Shown here piece after piece: positions 3,313 to 43,566 of a stretch of DNA of 43,746 nucleotides. Every line of letters begins with the position of its first letter. Positions within the stretch are counted from its first letter, which is position 1. The position numbers and the translations under genes are program-made. The notes under the pieces are model-generated. The model searched no databases and was not told where the DNA came from. It saw only the letters and a program-made list of their open reading frames with translations. The stretch lies in the sequence record PQ850621.1; one strand, written 5' to 3'. Origin of the DNA: Escherichia phage NicoleGrasset_Bas72.

Positions 3313-3336
3313 ATAGCCCCGAAAGGGGCTTTCTTA
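3313..3336 (+). terminator. hairpin plus short T-tract between portal and head-morphogenesis genes (attenuator-like)
   Basis: AGCCCC gaaa GGGGCT then TTCTT. Confidence 0.35.
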
Positions 3337-4880: not shown

Positions 4881-4909
4881 AAAGGCCCCATTATGGGGCC
4901 TTAGTTTTC
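4881..4909. terminator. rho-independent terminator, likely bidirectional
   Basis: AGGCCCCA tta TGGGGCCT then TAGTTTT; A-run on the other side; between convergent genes. Confidence 0.6.
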
Positions 4910-5111
4910 AACGGAATCTTGTGTTTAAATCCTGCTCATGGACAACCCTCAGAACAGTGTCATAATCCCCGTATCTTCCAGGTTCAAATATATCTAATGC
5001 CTTGTAAGCAGACATTGCGTCAGGGAAAACCTGCAGAACCTTTTTAACCCGGCACAAGTCACCGTCGAACTCTTCATCGAACTCTTGAACTACTTCGCAA
5101 ATTGCATACAT
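4908..5111 (-). CDS. hypothetical protein, 67 aa, acidic
   Basis: ATG with AGGAGGTG SD; sits between bidirectional terminator 4881-4909 and minus-strand promoter 5139-5167. Confidence 0.5.
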   Translation of the reverse strand: MYAICEVVQEFDEEFDGDLCRVKKVLQVFPDAMSAYKALDIFEPGRYGDYDTVLRVVHEQDLNTRFR

Positions 5112-5138
5112 TTTTCACCTCCTGTTTAAGTTAACTGA

Positions 5139-5167
5139 ATAGTACCCTATTATATTGGGGTGTGCAA
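5139..5167 (-). promoter_or_regulatory. promoter, TTGCAC-N17-TACTAT family
   Basis: On minus strand: TTGCAC, 17-nt spacer accccaatataataggg, TACTAT; drives 4908-5111. Confidence 0.55.
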
Positions 5168-5242
5168 ACTATTTATTTACGTATTCCATTTATTCCACTA
5201 AATTGTAAATATTGGAATAAACTATTCGAATAGTTGACTTTT

Positions 5243-12328: not shown

Positions 12329-12356
12329 ACTAAGGCCCCTTTCGGGGCCTTTTTCT
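12329..12356. terminator. bidirectional rho-independent terminator
   Basis: AGGCCCC tttc GGGGCCT then TTTTT; convergent genes on both sides. Confidence 0.75.
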
Positions 12357-12586
12357 CACTCATCAATATTACTTCGATACTCCCGTAACTTCTCCAGACT
12401 TTCAATTGCTTCTGCTAAGTCGGTTCCGGTGTCCTTATGCCCGCGAAGACCCATGCACAATAACTTCTTCAATGCGTGCTGTAGTGCGGGGTCACGGATG
12501 TCGAAGGCACGGAGAACATCGTAAACGTCTACGGTCATAGTGCTGCCGTGAGTGTTTGTCATTGTTCGGTTGTATTTTGAAGTCAT
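12356..12586 (-). CDS. hypothetical protein (76 aa)
   Basis: Last gene of minus-strand cassette; start overlaps stop of 12583-13713. Confidence 0.45.
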   Translation of the reverse strand: MTSKYNRTMTNTHGSTMTVDVYDVLRAFDIRDPALQHALKKLLCMGLRGHKDTGTDLAEAIESLEKLREYRSNIDE

Positions 12587-13713
12587 CCCAGCATCTCCGG
12601 TGAAATAGTTAAACGTGCGACCTCGCCATATTCGGCGCTATAAGTAATTACATTTGCACTACGGCCTGACATCCACCCGCCGCGGGAGGCATAGGCGTCT
12701 TTAGCCGCTAAGGTGCGGTGTTGCTCAACAATCATGTTACGGCTTTCTACAATCTTCTGGTGGTGCAGGTGGCCTACGTGGGCGTAGCTATAGACACTCT
12801 CACCGAACGCTTTGCGGAATTTGGCAATCATAACCGGTTCGATAGCATCGAATCGCGCCTTATGCCCGTGGTGAAAGAACAACGTCGTTTTTCCGTGTTG
12901 CACCATCTTGTAAACATCCGGCGACGTATCGACAATCACTCGGCTGTCGTTCGAATATAAAACTGTGAACATTTCAGCCAGCCATACAGAGCCTACAGGG
13001 TCATGGTTCCCCTGTACGATAAGCAAGCGAACATTTTTATGTTTAACCAGTGCCATATCTACAACACGGCGTACCATACGAATCATGTAGCGGACGAGTT
13101 TCTGGTAGCGAGTGTCTGCGTCCAACACGTGACGCGACTCAGGTGTAACGGCATCCAGACTATCGAAGTGCGCGAAATCACCCAGCAGGTTAATAACTCC
13201 TGTTCCTGCATCCGGTGCTTTCTGAAACGCCGCGTCGAACCAACGAGAGAACAGGTCTTCCGCAATCTTTATATCCCAGTCGTCGCCGCTCTCGTCGGCC
13301 CAGGCAAGCATACCGAGATGGAAATCAGATACCGTGTAAAGATTGAGTAGCTTGTCGTCGCGTTTGGCTCGAGTCGCTTTAGCCGGCGCAACTGGCGTAA
13401 TCTCTGACTTCATGCCTTCAATCACGGCTTTCATCAACTCGACCTGACGTTCAGCGTCGGTGTCTGTCTTAACCCATTGCAACTTAGTATTGCCGAACTC
13501 GTCTACCAGAGACGACGTCCCTTTAATCTTGTAGCCGTCTGGGACAAGGTGGCTAACGTCACGCCCGTGGCCTACACCTTTCTTAGCCAGCTTCGCTTTA
13601 CGGATACGAATAACTCGGTCTGAGATGCCGTATTTACGGGCGATGTCTACATTCTTCATCCCGGCGTTCAATTCTTCCTGTAACTGTTCGTCGGTTATTT
13701 TCTTCTGGGCCAT
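12583..13713 (-). CDS. HTH domain fused to calcineurin-like metallophosphoesterase
   Basis: Metallophosphoesterase motifs visible in order: SDFHLG (D-x-H), GDFAHFD (GD), GNHD, HHGH, GHLHH; N-terminal HTH-like segment VDIARKYGISDRVIRIRKAKL. Confidence 0.7.
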   Translation of the reverse strand: MAQKKITDEQLQEELNAGMKNVDIARKYGISDRVIRIRKAKLAKKGVGHGRDVSHLVPDGYKIKGTSSLVDEFGNTKLQWVKTDTDAERQVELMKAVIEGMKSEITPVAPAKATRAKRDDKLLNLYTVSDFHLGMLAWADESGDDWDIKIAEDLFSRWFDAAFQKAPDAGTGVINLLGDFAHFDSLDAVTPESRHVLDADTRYQKLVRYMIRMVRRVVDMALVKHKNVRLLIVQGNHDPVGSVWLAEMFTVLYSNDSRVIVDTSPDVYKMVQHGKTTLFFHHGHKARFDAIEPVMIAKFRKAFGESVYSYAHVGHLHHQKIVESRNMIVEQHRTLAAKDAYASRGGWMSGRSANVITYSAEYGEVARLTISPEMLG

Positions 13714-13778: not shown

Positions 13779-14105
13779 CTATTTACTTTCTGCGCCTATC
13801 GCCCACCCTGTCATTACCATTTGCAGACGGGTGGCTGTCAGTAGGCTATAGAAAGCATCTCCGTTTTTCTCTACCGAACGTATCACTGTGTAGGTTACGG
13901 CCTGCGGGGGTAGGCCCGATTTACCAACCTCCACGGCGGCCTCACACTCGCGAACTGTAGAGTCCTTGAACGCCTTTACAATAGTAGGGTCGGCTTTATC
14001 AAGCACACCAGAAGTCATAAGAACAGATTCACTAAATACCTGTTCGCACGGGGCTCCAAAAGTAGCAAAAGACATAAACCCCAGAGCTAATACTAATTTA
14101 CGCAT
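13779..14105 (-). CDS. small secreted protein (signal peptide)
   Basis: N-terminus MRKLVLALGFMSFATFGA is a signal-peptide-like n/h/c region; first gene downstream of promoter 14134-14162. Confidence 0.55.
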   Translation of the reverse strand: MRKLVLALGFMSFATFGAPCEQVFSESVLMTSGVLDKADPTIVKAFKDSTVRECEAAVEVGKSGLPPQAVTYTVIRSVEKNGDAFYSLLTATRLQMVMTGWAIGAESK

Positions 14106-14133
14106 AATTATACCCTCAGTAAGTTACTGGTGA

Positions 14134-14162
14134 ATAGTACCCTATTATATTGGGGCGCGCAA
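14134..14162 (-). promoter_or_regulatory. promoter, TTGCGC-N17-TACTAT family
   Basis: On minus strand: TTGCGC, spacer gccccaatataataggg, TACTAT; drives cassette 13779-14105 onward. Confidence 0.55.
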
Positions 14163-24137: not shown

Positions 24138-24166
24138 ACTAAGGCCCCGTTTGGGGCCTTTTCTCT
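24138..24166. terminator. bidirectional rho-independent terminator at structural/replication module junction
   Basis: AGGCCCC gttt GGGGCCT then TTTTCT; near-identical to terminator at 12329. Confidence 0.75.
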
Positions 24167-25905: not shown

Positions 25906-26692
25906 TTACGGCCCCCATGAACGCCTTTATAAATTCAGCGGCTACTTGCGGGACGATAGCATTGCCGTAACCGCGCAATCGTCCCACTCTGGCGGGTACC
26001 CCATTAGCCAGCGGGAATGTGCTGGGTTCAACTGGCCTGAATTTTCCATCCCGGCATCCGAGCCAGTCAGCATCTGACCAGAACCCGTTAGGCGGATTGG
26101 CTGTGTCAGAGATGCCTCTGTTTGCAGATTGTGGCCCCCGTTCCTGCCCTGATGGCCTGCTCCCGCCGAGTTGTTCGCACACGGTGTTGGCCAGTTGCTG
26201 CGCTCCGAAGAACAATCGATTCCTTTTGTGCGGTGCGCCGACGCTACAAGCTGGGAGTACGGCAAACCCGACGGCGTAGTCTTCTCTTTCCAGGTGAGTT
26301 TGTAAATCGCACATCCACGATTTTGCAATTGCTGCCGCAACCTGCTCCCCAAAGATGACTGGAGGGTGGCACTCGCTGATGAGGTCGAGGAGCACAGGTG
26401 CGAGGTGTCTCTGGTCGAACTGTCCGAGTTGCTTTCCTGCCGTGCTAAACGGTTGGCAAGGCGGACTTCCCGTCCATATAGGCGTATCTTCAGAAACTCC
26501 CGCAAGTCTGAGCGCGAGAGGCCAGCCGCCGATACCCGCGAAAAAATGACACTGGGTGAACCCGTCAAGGTCTTCTGGCTTAACTTCGGTAATGCTTCTT
26601 TCATCTACAACTCCAAAAGGTATGTGACCCTGTTTTATCAACTCACGCAGCCACGCGGCTGCGCCTTTATCCCATTCATTGTAATAGTTCAT
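25898..26692 (-). CDS. compact C5-cytosine DNA methyltransferase
   Basis: Motif I FFAGIGG, motif [11 protein letters not shown] (catalytic PCQ), motif VIII-like KRNRLFF, motif X-like [11 protein letters not shown]; only 264 aa, so the target recognition region is short. Confidence 0.7.
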
Positions 26693-26880
26693 TTCGCCAC
26701 CAGCACCAGCTCTTTACGCCCGAACGCCGTAACGTTACCCGTTACATCTTCGATAACCAGTTTACCGTTCGACTCGACGAACACCGTATCAACGGCAACA
26801 GGTTGACGTGTCTTAACGTTGAAAATCATGTCACCCGGTACGATGTCACGTGCTGGTTTGCGGTCGTATTCGTGTTTCAT
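26689..26880 (-). CDS. hypothetical protein (63 aa)
   Basis: AAGGAA SD; first gene downstream of promoter 26914-26942. Confidence 0.45.
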   Translation of the reverse strand: MKHEYDRKPARDIVPGDMIFNVKTRQPVAVDTVFVESNGKLVIEDVTGNVTAFGRKELVLVAK

Positions 26881-26910: not shown

Positions 26911-27198
26911 TTAACTATAATAGCCCGCTATTAGGTCGTCAACCTGTTTAAACGAACCAACGACAAAAACATTTGCACCACGTTTACGCATCCGCTCGTG
27001 CTCTCGTAACTGGTGCGGGTCCGGCTTCGTGTTTTCGTCTTTCTTAACCTCGACGAACCAGATGATGCCACCAGGGAGAATTACCAGCAGGTCGGGGGCG
27101 CCGGAGCGCCCCTCATAAGACAGCTTACGAACGAGGCCACCAATGGCCTCGAATCGCTCTTTTGCGTATTTCTGCACGCGCCCCTCAGGCGTACTCAT
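26911..27198 (-). CDS. VRR-NUC domain nuclease (PD-(D/E)xK)
   Basis: 95 aa; GAPDLLVI...VEVKK pattern matches the D...E-x-K core of VRR-NUC; GAGGGG SD. Confidence 0.6.
   Translation of the reverse strand: MSTPEGRVQKYAKERFEAIGGLVRKLSYEGRSGAPDLLVILPGGIIWFVEVKKDENTKPDPHQLREHERMRKRGANVFVVGSFKQVDDLIAGYYS
26914..26942 (-). promoter_or_regulatory. sigma70-like promoter TTGACG-N17-TATAGT
   Basis: On minus strand; within the 3' end of the VRR-NUC gene; upstream of 26689-26880 and the methyltransferase. Confidence 0.5.
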
Positions 27199-30565: not shown

Positions 30566-31192
30566 TTAACGGCGGCGACGTTCGCGGCGCGGTGCTTCAT
30601 CTTCTTCGTCGTCTTCCAGGTCGTCGACGCTTGCAGCAACTTTAGAGCCTCCAAACGCTTTACCTTCGCCAACGTACTTAATTGCCAGCAGGTTAACGCC
30701 GAGTACTTTATATTTCTGGCTGAACCAGATTTCAACGCTTACGTTAGCGACGCAGCCACTGTACACCTGTTCACCTTCAATCTGTTCGCCTTCTACATTG
30801 AAGTCTGGTTCTACCTGAGTTTCGCCTTTTTTAGATGTTACAATCAGAGGTTGTTTCTGCGCTTTCGCTTTGAAGTAGAAACCTTCCGGGAAGTCTTCAA
30901 ACGGATTGTCGCGCTCGGCGATGTCCTTAATCGCGCATTTATCCATGTGCTTGCCTTCGCCGTAGTTTGACTTCATCCATTTCTCTGCGGCGGCTGCACC
31001 CAACGCTTCTTCAACCACAGCGTAAACGGTGTCGTAGAGCGCGTCGATTTGAGCATGGTCAGACGGCAGGATGATAGTTGCGCTGTACTGGCCTTTAGTG
31101 ATTGAGCCGTCGTCGTTTTCACGGTCTTTTTCGCGTTCGAATACGTTAACCCATGCAGTGTTTACTTTACGCAGATTCAGTTTAATGCCCAT
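30566..31192 (-). CDS. DUF2815-like putative ssDNA-binding protein
   Basis: 208 aa with acidic DD/EE-rich then basic RRERRRR C-terminus; sits between nuclease and polymerase as in DUF2800/DUF2815/PolA modules; followed by terminator. Confidence 0.5.
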   Translation of the reverse strand: MGIKLNLRKVNTAWVNVFEREKDRENDDGSITKGQYSATIILPSDHAQIDALYDTVYAVVEEALGAAAAEKWMKSNYGEGKHMDKCAIKDIAERDNPFEDFPEGFYFKAKAQKQPLIVTSKKGETQVEPDFNVEGEQIEGEQVYSGCVANVSVEIWFSQKYKVLGVNLLAIKYVGEGKAFGGSKVAASVDDLEDDEEDEAPRRERRRR

Positions 31193-31245: not shown

Positions 31246-31274
31246 ACTATAATAGCTAACTATTCAGGTGTCAA
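31246..31274 (-). promoter_or_regulatory. sigma70-like promoter TTGACA-N17-TATAGT
   Basis: On minus strand; partly within the 3' end of 31260-31463; upstream of DUF2815-like gene. Confidence 0.55.
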
Positions 31275-31463: not shown

Positions 31464-32740
31464 TCCAAATCCTCCTCTGTTACCTGATTCCACTCAGGAC
31501 GTTTGTCGTCTGCCGTTGCGACACATGGTGCGCCTGGCTTACGGGTAATGAAGTCTTTCAGTTCTTCTTCCGGTATGACTTTAACAGCTTCGGTAGGTGA
31601 CATGAGCACTTCTTTAGTCAGCTTGTCGCCGTAGAGTTCTGTTACTTTCTCCGCGTCTTTCCATGCACGATTACCCGGGCGGCCTTCAACCAACTTGTAA
31701 CCAGGAACTTTCTTACCTGAATGCAACGCGGCCGCCATAGCTTTCTCAACCTTGTCGATGTGCTGGCGCAACAGCGGCAACTTCTCATACTCAGCTACGA
31801 GTTGCTCCGGCGTCAGTTCCAGCACAAAGTCGTCTTCCAGTTCTTCCGCCAGTACAGAATTAACCGTCTTTGTACGCGCAGCGCATTGTTCAGAGAACCG
31901 GCACCACTGACAACCATCTACCGATGGCTTGAAGTCCGACGCTTTCAGGTTCTTCTTGCCACGGAAATACGCATCAAGCGCTAACAGCGCGCGTTTCTGT
32001 GCGAACTTAGCGAACAGTTCCAGTCCTTCAACCGAGATGTCCCACTCTGTCGCGCCCCCAGCGTAAGGCTGGAAGATGACCAGACGAACGGTTGTTATGT
32101 TATAACGTCTCTTGAGTCGACGATAAACACCGAGAGCGTAAAGCATAAGCTGCTTGTTTTCTTTCGCTTCGACGCGATGCCGTCCTGTTTTAAGGTCGCC
32201 GATAATGAGCATCGCGGAGTTACTTTCACCTGTAAAGCCTTCTATAACCGCCACTAAGTCGGCTGTCCCGAATGTCTCTAAATCATCCTCCTTACCTTCT
32301 TCACTCTCAGCAGGTACTTTGTAGCCCGGATGCAATACCTCAGTAAGATTGACACGCATTTCCAGCTTGGCGTAAGTCGCTACATCGATAATCGCTTTGC
32401 AGTAGTCGGTGTACTTGCGAACCTGTTCAATCATGTCAGCCGTAATCAGTACCGCGCCTTTCATAGGGCTGATTAACGCCTTAATCTGGCCTTTTCCTTC
32501 GTCCAGTACATAAGCGCCGACTTCACGTTCTAATGGCAACGCAGTGCCTTTGATGTACTGGTTAAGGTGTATCTCGGCTATGGTGTGCATTGCCGTGCCT
32601 AATATCGCAGCTTTACCGGACGTGTCAGGAATATCCTTTTCACAGGCCAGTGATGCGGCGCAGGTTAACCACTTTTTAGCACCTGACGGTGACAGTAAGG
32701 CGTGTACGTCGTTATTGCCGCCGCGTTCTTTTAGAATCAT
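31460..32740 (-). CDS. DUF2800-like PD-(D/E)xK (Cas4-like) nuclease
   Basis: N-terminal HALLSPSGAKKWLTCAAS signature; C-terminal Cys cluster VDGCQWCRFSEQCAAR consistent with Fe-S Cas4-like nucleases; ends with VTEEDLE. Confidence 0.6.
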   Translation of the reverse strand: MILKERGGNNDVHALLSPSGAKKWLTCAASLACEKDIPDTSGKAAILGTAMHTIAEIHLNQYIKGTALPLEREVGAYVLDEGKGQIKALISPMKGAVLITADMIEQVRKYTDYCKAIIDVATYAKLEMRVNLTEVLHPGYKVPAESEEGKEDDLETFGTADLVAVIEGFTGESNSAMLIIGDLKTGRHRVEAKENKQLMLYALGVYRRLKRRYNITTVRLVIFQPYAGGATEWDISVEGLELFAKFAQKRALLALDAYFRGKKNLKASDFKPSVDGCQWCRFSEQCAARTKTVNSVLAEELEDDFVLELTPEQLVAEYEKLPLLRQHIDKVEKAMAAALHSGKKVPGYKLVEGRPGNRAWKDAEKVTELYGDKLTKEVLMSPTEAVKVIPEEELKDFITRKPGAPCVATADDKRPEWNQVTEEDLE

Positions 32741-33099
32741 CGTAAACTCTCCAAATACAAGTTTAATGCCTGTAGCTGTTCTTCTGTGGGGATGAAAGAA
32801 TCATCACGATGTAAGTCGCTTAACTGTTGCAGCATTCCTGCGAACTTACGTCTTGCGTCAACAGTGGCCATGTGATGCTTTTCGCTTTTGTATATTAATG
32901 TTTTCGGGTAATCCTCAAGTCTTCCAGACGATTTATTCACGCGGAGTGCTCGAGCTTCATGCGCAATGTGGATGTACTTTTTGCCGTTTTGTAGCACAGT
33001 AGCTACGCCGCTGTTCTTTCTGCGGTCACCGACGGTGTAAACCTTGTCACCACTACGCAGATTAAGCCACCATTTATCCGTCATACCCGGTTCTCCCAC
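32737..33099 (-). CDS. hypothetical protein (120 aa)
   Basis: Co-oriented, overlapping start/stop in early-left operon. Confidence 0.45.
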   Translation of the reverse strand: MGEPGMTDKWWLNLRSGDKVYTVGDRRKNSGVATVLQNGKKYIHIAHEARALRVNKSSGRLEDYPKTLIYKSEKHHMATVDARRKFAGMLQQLSDLHRDDSFIPTEEQLQALNLYLESLR

Positions 33100-33396: not shown

Positions 33397-33897
33397 TTAT
33401 TCTTCTTCGAAATACTTGTTCTTAATCGCCGTCAGGCGTTTCAGGTATTCAGCCAGGTCTTCGTCTTTAATCGCGGCAATCTTCATTTTCTTACCGGTGA
33501 ACTCCTCCAGCAGTTCATCGGAATCGTCGCACGCAGCATCGCTAGGACCTTCGTTAATTGCATCGTCGATAGCCTGAATCTGGTCACGAAGAGACTGGTA
33601 ATCGACCTCTTCTTTCTCTTCTTCTGGTTCTGGAGTCGGCTCCTCTACTTTAGCTTTACGCGGCTTGCGTTTCGGCTTCTCTTCTTCTGCTGGTTTAGCG
33701 TCAACGATGTCTTCACCTTCAACAGGGATTTCTTTTGTTGCTTCTTTTTCGCACTCAGCTACCGCTTCTTTGGTATACACTACCGTCTCTACTTCTAACG
33801 GCGCTGCAACTTGTGCTGACTGTTTCGCACTGTTCGCAGCAATCAGTTCATGTGCAACTACGAAACGTTCCAGTAATTTTAAGAATTGTTCTAACAT
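33397..33897 (-). CDS. highly acidic protein, first gene of early-left operon
   Basis: GAGGAGAG SD; E/D-rich (EPTPEPEEEKEEVDYQ, DDSDELLEEF); directly downstream of strong promoter 33929-33957. Confidence 0.55.
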   Translation of the reverse strand: MLEQFLKLLERFVVAHELIAANSAKQSAQVAAPLEVETVVYTKEAVAECEKEATKEIPVEGEDIVDAKPAEEEKPKRKPRKAKVEEPTPEPEEEKEEVDYQSLRDQIQAIDDAINEGPSDAACDDSDELLEEFTGKKMKIAAIKDEDLAEYLKRLTAIKNKYFEEE

Positions 33898-33928: not shown

Positions 33929-33957
33929 ACTATAATAGCGAACTATTCACATGTCAA
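33929..33957 (-). promoter_or_regulatory. sigma70-like promoter TTGACA-N17-TATAGT
   Basis: On minus strand; upstream of acidic-protein gene 33397-33897. Confidence 0.6.
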
Positions 33958-33961
33958 TGGG

Positions 33962-33990
33962 CTTTTCTAAAATAATTAATATGGTACTAT
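33962..33990 (+). promoter_or_regulatory. weak promoter candidate for HTH regulator gene
   Basis: TACTAT -10 at 33985-33990 with AT-rich upstream region; -35 poor (CTTTTC). Confidence 0.3.
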
Positions 33991-34021
33991 TCACATATCA
34001 ACTGACTAAGGAGTAATTGAC

Positions 34022-34237
34022 ATGCGACCATCTGAACTAGGCATCCGTGTAGAACAACGCCGCAAAGAACTCGGCATCTCCCAGCGCCGTTTGGCGGCCC
34101 TGACCGGCGTTTCCCAGGGCGCGATTAACCAACTGGCACTTGGAGTAACTCAGGACGTCCGCCCGGCAACGCTGTTCAAACTGGCGGAAGTTCTGGAAGT
34201 AGACGCCAAGTGGCTGGCGTTAGGTGAAGGGGCTTAA
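34022..34237 (+). CDS. XRE-family HTH transcriptional regulator (Cro/CI-like)
   Basis: 71 aa; classic HTH LGISQRRLAALTGVSQGAINQL; AAGGAG SD; own terminator 34227-34252. Confidence 0.7.
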   Translation: MRPSELGIRVEQRRKELGISQRRLAALTGVSQGAINQLALGVTQDVRPATLFKLAEVLEVDAKWLALGEGA

Positions 34238-34252
34238 AGCCCCTTTCTTTTT
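34227..34252 (+). terminator. rho-independent terminator after HTH regulator gene
   Basis: GGGGC ttaaa GCCCC then TTTCTTTTT. Confidence 0.6.
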
Positions 34253-36686: not shown

Positions 36687-36974
36687 CCGTTTAGCCAACC
36701 CTTCCAGCAAATTTTTATACTCTTCAAAATATTCCTCGACCAAATCATCGCCGAAATAGAAGTCGATATACTCGAGATTATCTCTTACGTTAAGCGATGC
36801 CGACATGGTGCTTAGTTGGCGTAAGCTAATTAGCTTCATTTCTGTTTCTACGCAGAAAGGCCGGTAGGTATCAAGATGGCAAGAGATATTGAAGCATAAA
36901 GCGAACTCTCCGGCCACGGAGTGAACCATATACACTTCGTTTTCTGCTTTATTGTGGAAAATTACGCCTTTCAT
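36684..36974 (-). CDS. hypothetical protein (96 aa)
   Basis: Co-oriented ORF; overlaps upstream gene stop. Confidence 0.45.
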   Translation of the reverse strand: MKGVIFHNKAENEVYMVHSVAGEFALCFNISCHLDTYRPFCVETEMKLISLRQLSTMSASLNVRDNLEYIDFYFGDDLVEEYFEEYKNLLEGLAKR

Positions 36975-37155
36975 TTCACGTTCTCCTTAATCCATGCTTC
37001 GACTTTATTACGGTCAAATGTTCCCGGTAAACGGCGGCCCATAACCTTAATACAGCAGTCAGGGAATTTGCCGCTGCGCAACCAGTTATTAATGGTCTGA
37101 CGTGTCACCCCGATACGCTCGGCTACCTCATTCTGTGTCATGTAATGTTGCATTT
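36971..37155 (-). CDS. small HTH DNA-binding protein (AlpA/excisionase-like fold), start at internal ATG
   Basis: HTH MTQNEVAERIGVTRQTINNWL; ATG at 37155 with AGGGGA SD; track ORF extends to 37267 but upstream part lacks SD. Confidence 0.55.
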
Positions 37156-37250
37156 TTATATCCCCTGTTTGTTTAGTGAAACCGAGTATAGGATAGCGGG
37201 AATGTAAAAGCAACCAACCCCTGCAATATTTAATCTTTACAAAAAAGTTA

Positions 37251-37280
37251 TTGAAAGTTCTTGACACATGTTTGTATAAT
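37251..37280 (+). promoter_or_regulatory. sigma70-like promoter candidate TTGAAA-N18-TATAAT
   Basis: In divergent control region; would transcribe through palindrome 37307-37347 toward hairpin 37482-37510. Confidence 0.35.
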
Positions 37281-37306
37281 GGTTTTGGGACTTGTATATA
37301 TATTAC

Positions 37307-37347
37307 GGAGTTGACGAACCCTCCCCGAGGGATTCGTCAACCCCTCC
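37307..37347. promoter_or_regulatory. long imperfect palindrome (operator or RNA stem candidate)
   Basis: GTTGACGAACCCTC ... GAGGGATTCGTCAAC, arms about 14 bp with a short central spacer and one bulge. Confidence 0.4.
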
Positions 37348-37481
37348 CAGACAGCTGAGATGCTTGCCTTGTGGTTTAAGGATAAGTGTATCTAAATCTC
37401 ATTTAAAGAAGTAACCCGCTGAAATATCTACTGTTTCTTAATGTGCCGTAGATTCGCAACCGTAAAAATGTAACGATTATT

Positions 37482-37510
37482 GGGCAGGCTTAGGGCCTGC
37501 CCTTTAGTTA
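37482..37510 (+). terminator. terminator-like hairpin in divergent control region
   Basis: GGGCAGGC ttagg GCCTGCCC then TTTAGTT. Confidence 0.4.
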
Positions 37511-37574
37511 CCAAGTAATAAGAATAAAGGCACAACAGTTTCGAAAGAATCACAACGGCAACGTAACTATTCTC

Positions 37575-37603
37575 TTGCACACCCCAACATAATAGGATAC
37601 TAT
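37575..37603 (+). promoter_or_regulatory. promoter, TTGCAC-N17-TACTAT family
   Basis: TTGCAC, spacer accccaacataatagga, TACTAT; about 35 nt upstream of gene at 37638. Confidence 0.55.
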
Positions 37604-37637
37604 TCACTTATCGAAACGAGACAGAGGAGTGAGGGTT

Positions 37638-38631: not shown

Positions 38632-38748
38632 CCTACGCTGCTACACAGCAGCGTATCATTTTTCTCATTTTTGTTCTATTTCACCAAACGCAACAATCGA
38701 AGCGACTATTGCAGGAGACGCAACAATACAAACACCAATAAAATTTAC

Positions 38749-38777
38749 TTGCACACTAATATAGAATAGGCTACTAT
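38749..38777 (+). promoter_or_regulatory. promoter, TTGCAC-N17-TACTAT family
   Basis: TTGCAC, spacer actaatatagaataggc, TACTAT; upstream of 38809. Confidence 0.5.
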
Positions 38778-38808
38778 TCATTTACACAAACGAGAGGAGA
38801 GACAGAAT

Positions 38809-40924: not shown

Positions 40925-41189
40925 GTTATTCTGGTTCGGTGGTATGCTGGCAATCGGGGGCACATCGCTGTTTAATGTGTATCATCCCAGCGTGGACGAC
41001 GGATTATTTGGCCGGGTGCTCTATATCCTGACTGCCATCGTCTGTGCTGCCGGATGTATCCACCTGTTACAGGGCAGCATGTCACCAACGCTGCCTGAGA
41101 CGTTAATCACATTAGTTGCGCTGCGTCAGATTCGCCAGGTGTGGCTGTCATACGGAGGACATAAGCGTGTCTCGAAATATTTCAGATAA
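40917..41189 (+). CDS. second membrane protein of lysis cassette (holin/antiholin-like)
   Basis: Hydrophobic segments FWFGGMLAIGGTSLF and VLYILTAIVCAAGCIHLL; overlaps both neighbours. Confidence 0.5.
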   Translation: MNELFWFGGMLAIGGTSLFNVYHPSVDDGLFGRVLYILTAIVCAAGCIHLLQGSMSPTLPETLITLVALRQIRQVWLSYGGHKRVSKYFR

Positions 41190-41752: not shown

Positions 41753-41773
41753 TCTATTTTCTGCAATGACTAG

Positions 41774-41802
41774 TTGACTATTACCTACGACCCTATTATA
41801 TT
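41774..41802 (+). promoter_or_regulatory. sigma70-like promoter TTGACT-N17-TATATT
   Basis: Canonical spacing; follows terminator 41720-41752; precedes 41836. Confidence 0.55.
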
Positions 41803-43162: not shown

Positions 43163-43334
43163 ATGTTCAGCGACATCAACGCAGCAATCGAAGAAGCAAT
43201 CTGGCGCCGTTACAACGGCGAGCAACAGCGTCACTTCTGCCTGGTGCAACGTGGTAACATGGTCGCCGTGGTGCAGGACCGCGATAACAAATATCCGAAT
43301 GCGATGTGGACAACGAGGAATTTCTTAGGATGAT
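43163..43334 (+). CDS. small hypothetical protein (56 aa)
   Basis: ATG immediately after upstream stop; not in ORF track. Confidence 0.3.
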
Positions 43335-43566
43335 TACCAGCATTCCTAACCTGATTAAAGAATATGGCACGATGGCCGAGACATGCCGACAAACCGGCAT
43401 CAACGAAATGACTATTGCTAAGTACAGCAAAGATGTTAACTGCGATCGCCACGTAATTTTTAACAACCGTCTGATGACGCACGTTAAGACAAGCCCGGTG
43501 TTATTCACGCGCCGGGGTATCACTAAAACAGAGCAACGCATTGCTAAAGAGGAGAGTGGGGGATGA
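43331..43566 (+). CDS. hypothetical protein with possible HTH
   Basis: ATG 43331 overlapping upstream stop; segment AETCRQTGINEMTIAKY is HTH-like. Confidence 0.4.

Follow-up and report, generated by a model that had tools for sequence, protein, structure and literature searches.

434 Cro, HipB, SinR, P22 c2 and the C proteins of restriction-modification systems are all dimers that bind palindromes, and the operator of phage 434 has the sequence ACAA-N6-TTGT. C proteins and HipB-type antitoxins bind palindromic boxes over their own promoter and autoregulate. The DNA analysed here, referred to as the window, is a stretch of 43,746 nucleotides from Escherichia phage NicoleGrasset_Bas72 (PQ850621.1), and is essentially the complete genome of a Kagunavirus (Guernseyvirinae), a virulent siphovirus of E. 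coli. A 14-bp palindrome, AATAG-N4-CTATT, recurs at its promoters, and the candidate regulator that we favour resembles 434 Cro in being a 71-aa, single-domain helix-turn-helix (HTH) protein of the XRE type, with 434 Cro as its closest solved relative. The likeness extends to the DNA: as in the 434 operators, the site is a 14-bp palindrome with conserved outer bases, a variable centre and a 4-N6-4 geometry; as in the 434/lambdoid switch, the putative operators overlap the −35 and −10 elements of divergent promoters, including the regulator's own; and as with lambdoid Cro, copies lie at several promoters and one protein could turn down early transcription.

The system also departs from these models. 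Unlike 434, the window phage is strictly virulent, its relatives have no reported integrase and no CI-like partner is evident; where 434 has three adjacent operators, two predicted ones, 44 bp apart, lie upstream of the XRE gene; copies of the operator are spread over at least eight promoters, including those of cassettes inside the structural module; and the half-site is AATAG rather than ACAAG, its binding by the XRE protein being a prediction. C proteins and HipB-type antitoxins are likewise small XRE dimers with the same fold as the window protein, but they control one local operon, whereas the operator set of the window is genome-wide.

The motif itself has been published under another name. 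In the Kagunavirus fBC-Eco01, seven sites found with PHIRE (PP1-PP7; consensus tgAATAGTa-ccTATTat-T) were labelled 'Phage RNAP promoter' (PMC9825357, Table S2). That motif is the palindrome motif read on the reverse strand, and sequence and position pair PP2-PP7, six of its seven sites, with the window copies at 5138, 14133, 26919, 33978, 37591 and 38765, whereas the list holds no counterparts of the window copies at 31251 and 33934. The fBC-Eco01 paper is silent on the palindrome, the sigma-70 hexamers, the two registers and the link to an HTH gene. The description of phage VB_EcoS-Golestan also reports seven PHIRE promoters, a likeness of count, and mentions neither the palindrome nor the sigma-70 hexamers nor an HTH link. 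Our literature search found no transcription-start mapping for Guernseyvirinae, nor footprint or genetic data. The one RNA-seq study found, of the Kagunavirus K1B4, sampled 5-120 min with phage reads never above 9%, and it gives gene-level peaks over several infection cycles and, in its text, no per-gene classes (PMC12645636); it is too coarse for temporal classes to be assigned to the palindrome promoters.

Genome organization and the question of a phage RNA polymerase

The first 25 kb of the window are colinear with phage LotteLoewe_Bas71 and ~97% identical to it. The plus strand carries the structural genes (~1-24 kb) and a set of small early and lysis genes (~37.6-43.7 kb), and the minus strand carries the replication module (24-37 kb) together with two short cassettes within the structural module. 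A scan of the window for known RNA families found none. Minus-strand hairpins at 4882-4902, 12332-12351 and 24141-24160 are terminators of shared sequence (AAGGCCCC-N4-GGGGCCTT); they close three minus-strand units, each of which borders plus-strand structural genes, and they may act bidirectionally.

This gene content bears directly on the published label. That the promoters serve a phage-encoded RNA polymerase, as proposed for fBC-Eco01, is a reading that draws on the flagging of the motif by PHIRE and its listing as PP1-PP7 (PMC9825357), and we give it almost no credence. No RNA polymerase gene is evident in the list of open reading frames of the window or in the annotation of the ~97% identical Bas71, and the four ORFs of ~740-860 aa correspond, through their colinear Bas71 counterparts, to the tape measure, a tail protein, the DNA polymerase and the primase-helicase. 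Every site, moreover, has sigma-70 hexamers with 17-bp spacing, and the motif is palindromic and used in both orientations. Because no RNA polymerase gene is evident, the label 'phage RNAP promoter' is untenable: the motif is already published but wrongly named, and its reading as an operator appears to be new.

A palindrome defines two classes of predicted promoters

A first-pass annotation of this DNA had proposed a promoter family, TTGCAC-N17-TACTAT (TTGCGC at one site), at four loci on both strands. An exact search for TTGCRC-N17-TACTAT returned those four sites and no others, with no match in 100 dinucleotide-preserving shuffles. The spacers, described as near-identical, are so at three sites (15-16 of 17 positions); the fourth, at 38749, agrees at only 11 of 17, and these matches cluster in the −10-proximal half. 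The weaker TACTAT site noted at 33962-33990 is also present, with TACTATTCA at 33985-33993. Relative to the sigma-70 consensus, TTGCAC-N17-TACTAT matches at 7 of 12 positions and keeps TTG and TA...T, and by this measure such promoters, here called class A, are predicted to be of mediocre strength.

The surroundings of the four sites suit a promoter function. The minus-strand site at 5139-5167, whose −10 is supplied by the palindrome AATAGGGTACTATT (5138-5151), precedes a 67-aa ORF on the same strand (4908-5111), and a terminator-like hairpin at 4882-4902 ends the unit. At 14134-14162, also on the minus strand, the TTGCGC variant with its palindrome at 14133-14146 precedes 13779-14105 (unknown function), 12583-13713 (DNA repair exonuclease) and 12356-12586, all on the minus strand, before a terminator-like hairpin at 12332-12351. 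Both minus-strand members thus head self-contained units within the structural module, each closed by a terminator-like hairpin, in agreement with their proposed role as drivers of opposite-strand accessory genes. On the plus strand, the site at 37575-37603 (palindrome 37591-37604) leads into a run of small genes from 37638 that is followed by a terminator-like hairpin at 38634-38655, and the site at 38749-38777 (palindrome 38765-38778) into small genes from 38809 (DUF7170). A start codon lies 28-35 nt downstream of each of the four sites on the correct strand, so that position, strand, start-codon spacing and downstream terminators all fit the interpretation of these sites as promoters.

Two other hexamer matches were considered at class A sites. 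The TATAAT contained in the spacer (CAATATAATAGGG) was rejected as the true −10: it is missing from two of the four sites, and no usable −35 was found by eye 17 nt upstream. Directly downstream of the class A site at 14134-14162, also on the minus strand, TTCACC-N16-TATAAT (14107-14134) has a −10 that ends 1 nt before the ATG at 14105; this match is probably incidental, because its TATAAT follows the ribosome-binding site (GAGGG) and precedes the start codon.

The conserved part of the class A 'spacer' proved to be half of the 14-bp palindrome AATAG-N4-CTATT, with TACTAT forming the right half. An 18-mer core, ATAATAGGGTACTATTCA, has seven copies at three or fewer mismatches against 0.03 expected, two of them unlisted in the first-pass annotation. 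Perfect copies of the palindrome start at 5138, 14133, 26919, 31251, 33934, 37591 and 38765, and at one mismatch or fewer there are 12 copies in the window against 1.05 expected. At two mismatches, the 33 copies (~18 expected) are uninformative, as the excess is due to the sites with zero or one mismatch. AATAG-N4-CTATT is the commonest 5-N4-5 inverted repeat in the window, the runners-up being terminator stems with three copies. All seven perfect copies, and one copy with a single mismatch at 33978, sit at promoters. We conclude from these sequence patterns that the unit under selection is the palindrome and not the hexamers TTGCAC and TACTAT.

Defined in this way, the set takes in three promoters that the first-pass annotation had missed, all on the minus strand and directly upstream of three replication operons. 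At 33929-33957, TTGACA-N17-TATAGT (11 of 12 consensus positions) has its spacer filled by a palindrome at 33934-33947, designated O1; it heads an operon that begins with 33397-33897 and includes an exonuclease gene, divergent from the XRE gene. The same hexamers, again at 11 of 12, flank the palindrome at 31251-31264 in the promoter at 31246-31274, which precedes the genes for a ssDNA-binding/annealing protein (30566-31192) and the DNA polymerase. The third, TTGACG-N17-TATAGT at 26914-26942 (10 of 12; palindrome 26919-26932), falls inside the resolvase ORF, at its 3' end, and precedes 26689-26880 as well as the genes for the methyltransferase and the helicase. By their match to consensus, these class B promoters should be very strong. 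The family is consequently not one of four sites plus a weaker fifth defined by TTGCAC and TACTAT, but one of at least eight promoters in two registers, defined by the palindrome. Both classes have TTG, TA...T and a separation within 16-18 bp, with 7 of 12 consensus positions in class A and 10-11 of 12 in class B. The distance from the end of the −10 to the start codon is 28-35 nt at seven promoters and 54 nt at one, and Shine-Dalgarno sequences are visible.

The registers differ in how the palindrome is fitted to the promoter. In class A, 10 nt separate the −35 from the palindrome downstream of it, whose right half-site is the −10, so that the palindrome spans ~−19 to −6; in class B, the −35 lies 4 nt upstream and the −10 starts at the last base of the palindrome, which then spans ~−25 to −12. 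A third register, with the −35 at 7 nt upstream, occurs in the Salmonella Jerseyvirus Ent3. The palindrome is thus used in either strand orientation and in several registers.

The remaining copies with one mismatch are less readily interpreted. Those at 3335 and 36316 look like chance matches, one spanning a start codon and the other lying inside the primase gene. The 14-mer AATAGTTGACTTTT at 5229-5242 overlaps the −35 of a plus-strand TTGACT-N17-TAAGCT found by eye, and is a possible, if uncertain, weak operator. The 14-mer ACTAGTTGACTATT at 41769-41782 overlaps the −35 of the plus-strand TTGACT-N17-TATATT (41774-41802), an arrangement shared by Ent3 at 40956; it too is an uncertain candidate operator. 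Adjoining the −35 of the plus-strand TTGACT-N17-TAAGCT is a perfect 16-bp palindrome, AACTATTCGAATAGTT (5222-5237), made up of the two operator half-sites with their order exchanged; it has no obvious counterpart in Ent3. No perfect copy of AATAG-N4-CTATT was found upstream of the structural gene clusters of the window.

Conservation in related genera

The expectation that the spacer would be conserved at homologous positions of related phages holds in Kagunavirus and Jerseyvirus. AATAG-N4-CTATT is the top palindrome in Bas71 (seven copies) and in Ent3 (four perfect copies, plus others). Among loci from IMG/VR, it is the top palindrome in 20 of 20 from Kagunavirus and top or tied in 11 of 12 from Jerseyvirus, with two perfect copies at the remaining Jerseyvirus locus, L029. 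The 33 Kagunavirus and Jerseyvirus genomes or loci compared supplied 78 distinct sequences, 23 of class A and 55 of class B; in these, the half-sites carry ~1.6-2 bits per position, and the central 4 bp and the 4 bp beside the −35 carry ~0-0.6 bits. Sigma-70 makes no base-specific contacts at ~−25 to −21. The left half-site of class B occupies just this region and is nevertheless conserved, which argues for recognition by a dimeric protein and not by RNA polymerase alone. Conservation that is bipartite, symmetric and independent of register is the footprint to be expected of a dimeric DNA-binding protein, and the suggestion of a common factor, made earlier from conservation beyond the hexamers, is well taken.

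Two explanations that dispense with a dedicated phage regulator have to be weighed against these data. In the first, a strong, portable sigma-70 module would have spread with gene cassettes by duplication and recombination, the palindrome being a by-product. Three of the four class A sites indeed share sequence beyond the palindrome (TTGCRCRCCCCAAT), as recent copies would; the headed cassettes vary between phages, fBC-Eco01 having an extra copy, PP1; and the TACTAT, TATAGT and TATTAT found in or beside the half-sites are −10-like. The A/T-rich, −10-like character of the half-sites also weighs against the operator interpretation in general, as class A conservation could partly reflect promoter function alone. 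Yet the left AATAG of class B equals the −10 in its conservation across two genera, with the flanking 4 bp free to vary, the motif occurs in three registers and both orientations, and copying alone would not keep an exact two-fold symmetry while the centre diverges. We therefore regard spread without a binding factor as improbable.

In the second, the binder of the palindrome would be a protein of the host, one that E. coli and Salmonella share, and this would account for a motif that is the same in genera infecting either host though both phage HTH candidates vary. Cornellvirus infects Salmonella too, yet lacks AATAG-N4-CTATT, and two phage HTH genes adjoin copies of the site; nor was a convincing match seen to the E. 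coli regulator consensus sequences considered (ArgR, Fur, CRP, TrpR and the mar box). A host binder is accordingly very unlikely.

In the Cornellvirus Shemara, AATAG-N4-CTATT is absent (0 copies); the orthologous promoters carry, in an unchanged register, ATTAG-N4-GTAT, with four copies where 0.38 would be expected. The symmetry of this motif is imperfect, and one shuffle in 100 gave as many copies.

The region around the plus-strand class A site at 37575-37603 has several features of its own. The non-coding block 37419-37616 is 84-88% identical even in Salmonella Jerseyviruses and is more conserved between Kagunavirus and Jerseyvirus than most coding DNA; in Ent3 it holds a decayed copy of the class A promoter, with an intact one ~90 bp further on. 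The minus-strand ORF 37428-37607, which is annotated across the class A site in Bas71, is probably no gene, stops interrupting its copy in Ent3. Just upstream, the plus-strand stretch 37251-37502 has a near-consensus promoter (TTGAAA-N18-TATAAT, 11 of 12) followed by a long hairpin (37310-37345) and is ended by a strong terminator (37482-37502); a length of 223 nt within it folds at z = −4.2 and has neither an Rfam match nor a conserved ORF. The stretch may represent an early non-coding RNA or leader.

Candidate binding proteins

Three DNA-binding candidates were recognizable among the scanned proteins: the XRE/Cro-type protein (34022-34237, plus strand), an HTH_17 (Xis/MerR-like) protein of 60 aa (36971-37153, minus strand) and a NinH-like protein (43306-43566), the last an unlikely binder.

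The XRE protein matches Pfam HTH_3 at E = 3.9e-13 (49.7 bits; cut-off 23), and phmmer aligns its residues 6-68 with 434 Cro, the closest solved relative by sequence (E = 8.9e-6), and also matches the 434 repressor at ~1e-5. Modelled with AF2 from its single sequence (pLDDT 82), the protein can be superposed on 434 Cro at 1.7 Å over 54 columns, with a TM-score of ~0.63-0.68. The model also matches HipB, SinR, P22 c2 and the C proteins of restriction-modification systems, with Foldseek E-values that are weak because the domain is small. Both the score above the HTH_3 threshold and the five-helix fold place the protein in the XRE family. Its gene is conserved in 487 phage records and can escape annotation: in Bas71, tblastn finds it 98.6% identical at 32649-32861 without a CDS in the deposited annotation, which has a 31-aa minus-strand ORF (32664-32759) there instead. 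In the window, its stop codon is part of a terminator-like hairpin (34226-34246).

The promoter assigned to the XRE gene (33962-33990, plus strand) is of the class A register, with TACTAT as the −10 and a poor −35, and over this −10 lies a second putative operator, O2 (AATATGGTACTATT, 33978-33991; one mismatch to the palindrome). An alternative promoter upstream, TTCACA-N16-TAAAAT (33946-33973), would put O2 at ~+1. Relative to the XRE start codon, O1 lies at −88 and O2 at −44, and this divergent promoter region is conserved in both Kagunavirus and Jerseyvirus. Putative operator pairs upstream of the XRE gene are also present in Ent3 (34451 and 34506) and Shemara (35221 and 35285). From centre to centre, O1 and O2 are separated by 44 bp in Kagunavirus, 55 bp in Jerseyvirus (longer than in Kagunavirus by a clean insertion of 11 bp) and 64 bp in Cornellvirus, values near whole numbers of helical turns; this suggests a preserved helical phase, which may serve cooperative binding.

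More distant XRE homologues offer a mixed picture. Upstream of those on three loci (L040-L042), TAAAG-N4-CTTTA occurs at −99 and −53, and another (L054) has TGTAG-N4-CTACA at −123, +279 and +308; all four loci lack an HTH_17 gene. L040-L042 belong to an unrelated, AT-rich family of viral contigs on which ATAAAG-N4-CTTTAT forms two pairs, 46 and 55 bp apart, ~100 bp upstream and ~2 kb downstream of a 45%-identical XRE gene, the same layout as at the XRE locus of the window with a different half-site. Like the altered motif of Cornellvirus, these differing palindromes would suit an operator that evolves together with the recognition helix of its regulator. Only two of ~10 more distant XRE lineages have a repeated, perfect 5-N4-5 palindrome upstream, and its lack in most of them counts against the XRE protein as the binder. 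So does a comparison within the subfamily: the XRE proteins of Kagunavirus and Jerseyvirus are 47% identical, and their putative recognition helices (SQGAINQ and SQSLITH) differ at four of seven positions, yet the operator core is the same. The exact motif, finally, is confined to Kagunavirus and Jerseyvirus, the genera that carry HTH_17, which also speaks against the XRE protein.

These objections lend weight to the HTH_17 protein as the binder at the same promoter-plus-operator architecture. Its gene opens the leftward operon to which the primase-helicase gene also belongs, and the protein would be made early, from a promoter without the palindrome, and act as a repressor or as an activator or antiterminator loaded onto RNA polymerase. 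A minus-strand TCGATA-N17-TATGTT at the 37591 palindrome is not supported as the driver of this operon, its hexamers not being kept in Jerseyvirus; TTGCTT-N17-TATACT at 37185-37213 on the minus strand (8 of 12, by eye) is a more plausible candidate. Kagunavirus and Jerseyvirus share 82% identity in HTH_17 and have almost the same HTH, in keeping with an operator that does not change between them; of the 442 phage records with the protein, practically all belong to these two genera, and no homologue could be detected in Cornellvirus, a genus likewise devoid of exact AATAG-N4-CTATT copies. The binding element of lambda Q lies between the −35 and −10 of PR', and the class B palindrome falls exactly between these elements. 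Short proteins of the HTH_17/Xis/Cox/Apl type, however, typically bind arrays of direct repeats and not 14-bp palindromes, which counts against this candidate. At two Kagunavirus loci (L009 and L022), a 70%-identical HTH_17 has its putative recognition helix changed non-conservatively from TRQTINN to STMTLNR, and each locus still has five perfect palindromes. Cornellvirus, in which the XRE protein is 39% identical and HTH_17 is missing, has a related motif that occupies its promoters in an unchanged register, and the 5-N4-5 palindromes at distant XRE loci likewise occur without HTH_17. An HTH gene that corresponds to the HTH_17 gene in its place in the gene order does appear among the four 'early' genes of K1B4 (PMC12645636), a mapping that we deduced from that order. 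On balance, we favour the XRE protein over HTH_17, which we consider a serious rival even if the odds are clearly against it.

A more specific version of the HTH_17 alternative deserves mention. The palindrome could be, instead of a repressor site, one at which HTH_17 is loaded or activates, so that host RNA polymerase is modified at all early and middle promoters, which might allow the polymerase to read through internal terminators of the long replication operons. If true, a virulent siphovirus would possess a Q-like or AlpA-like system in minimal form; we consider it distinctly improbable.

Proposed repression by the XRE protein

The interpretation that we prefer, and hold to be slightly better than an even bet, is that the sites are promoters for host sigma-70 into which an operator is built, and that the XRE protein binds this operator and represses them. 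The palindrome has the two-fold symmetry and conserved half-sites of an operator and overlaps the core of eight promoters, including that of the XRE gene itself. A dimer of the XRE protein centred at ~−12.5 (class A) or ~−18.5 (class B) would block RNA polymerase, and because this position overlaps the footprint of the polymerase, repression is the natural reading. Class B promoters, at 10-11 of 12 consensus positions, are moreover too near to consensus to need an activator, which favours repression and weighs against activation by HTH_17. With an operator on its own promoter, the XRE protein would limit its own synthesis (negative autoregulation) and, as it accumulated, would turn down the early and middle units: the small host-directed genes, the accessory cassettes and the replication genes. 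The motif and its symmetry, where it lies relative to hexamers and genes, how it is conserved and the family of the protein are observed directly; promoter activity, binding, the identity of the binder and the direction of control are what we infer from them.

Implications for Kagunavirus and Jerseyvirus

The palindrome system would be ordinary promoter/operator control of the textbook Cro type, in a virulent phage. If the proposal is true, a lambdoid-style circuit survives in a strictly lytic phage, without the mechanism being new. Our results correct the published label 'phage RNAP promoter' and flag a regulator gene that at least one annotation (Bas71) omits. Kagunavirus and Jerseyvirus comprise several hundred sequenced phages of E. 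coli and Salmonella, whose uses include therapy, biocontrol and phage engineering, where they act as scaffolds (CM001 and the BASEL phages Bas70-76 are examples), and engineers would gain defined early promoters of two strengths with a matching repressor. For the phages themselves, it would mean that one 14-bp site and one 71-aa protein time most of the non-structural transcription in both genera.
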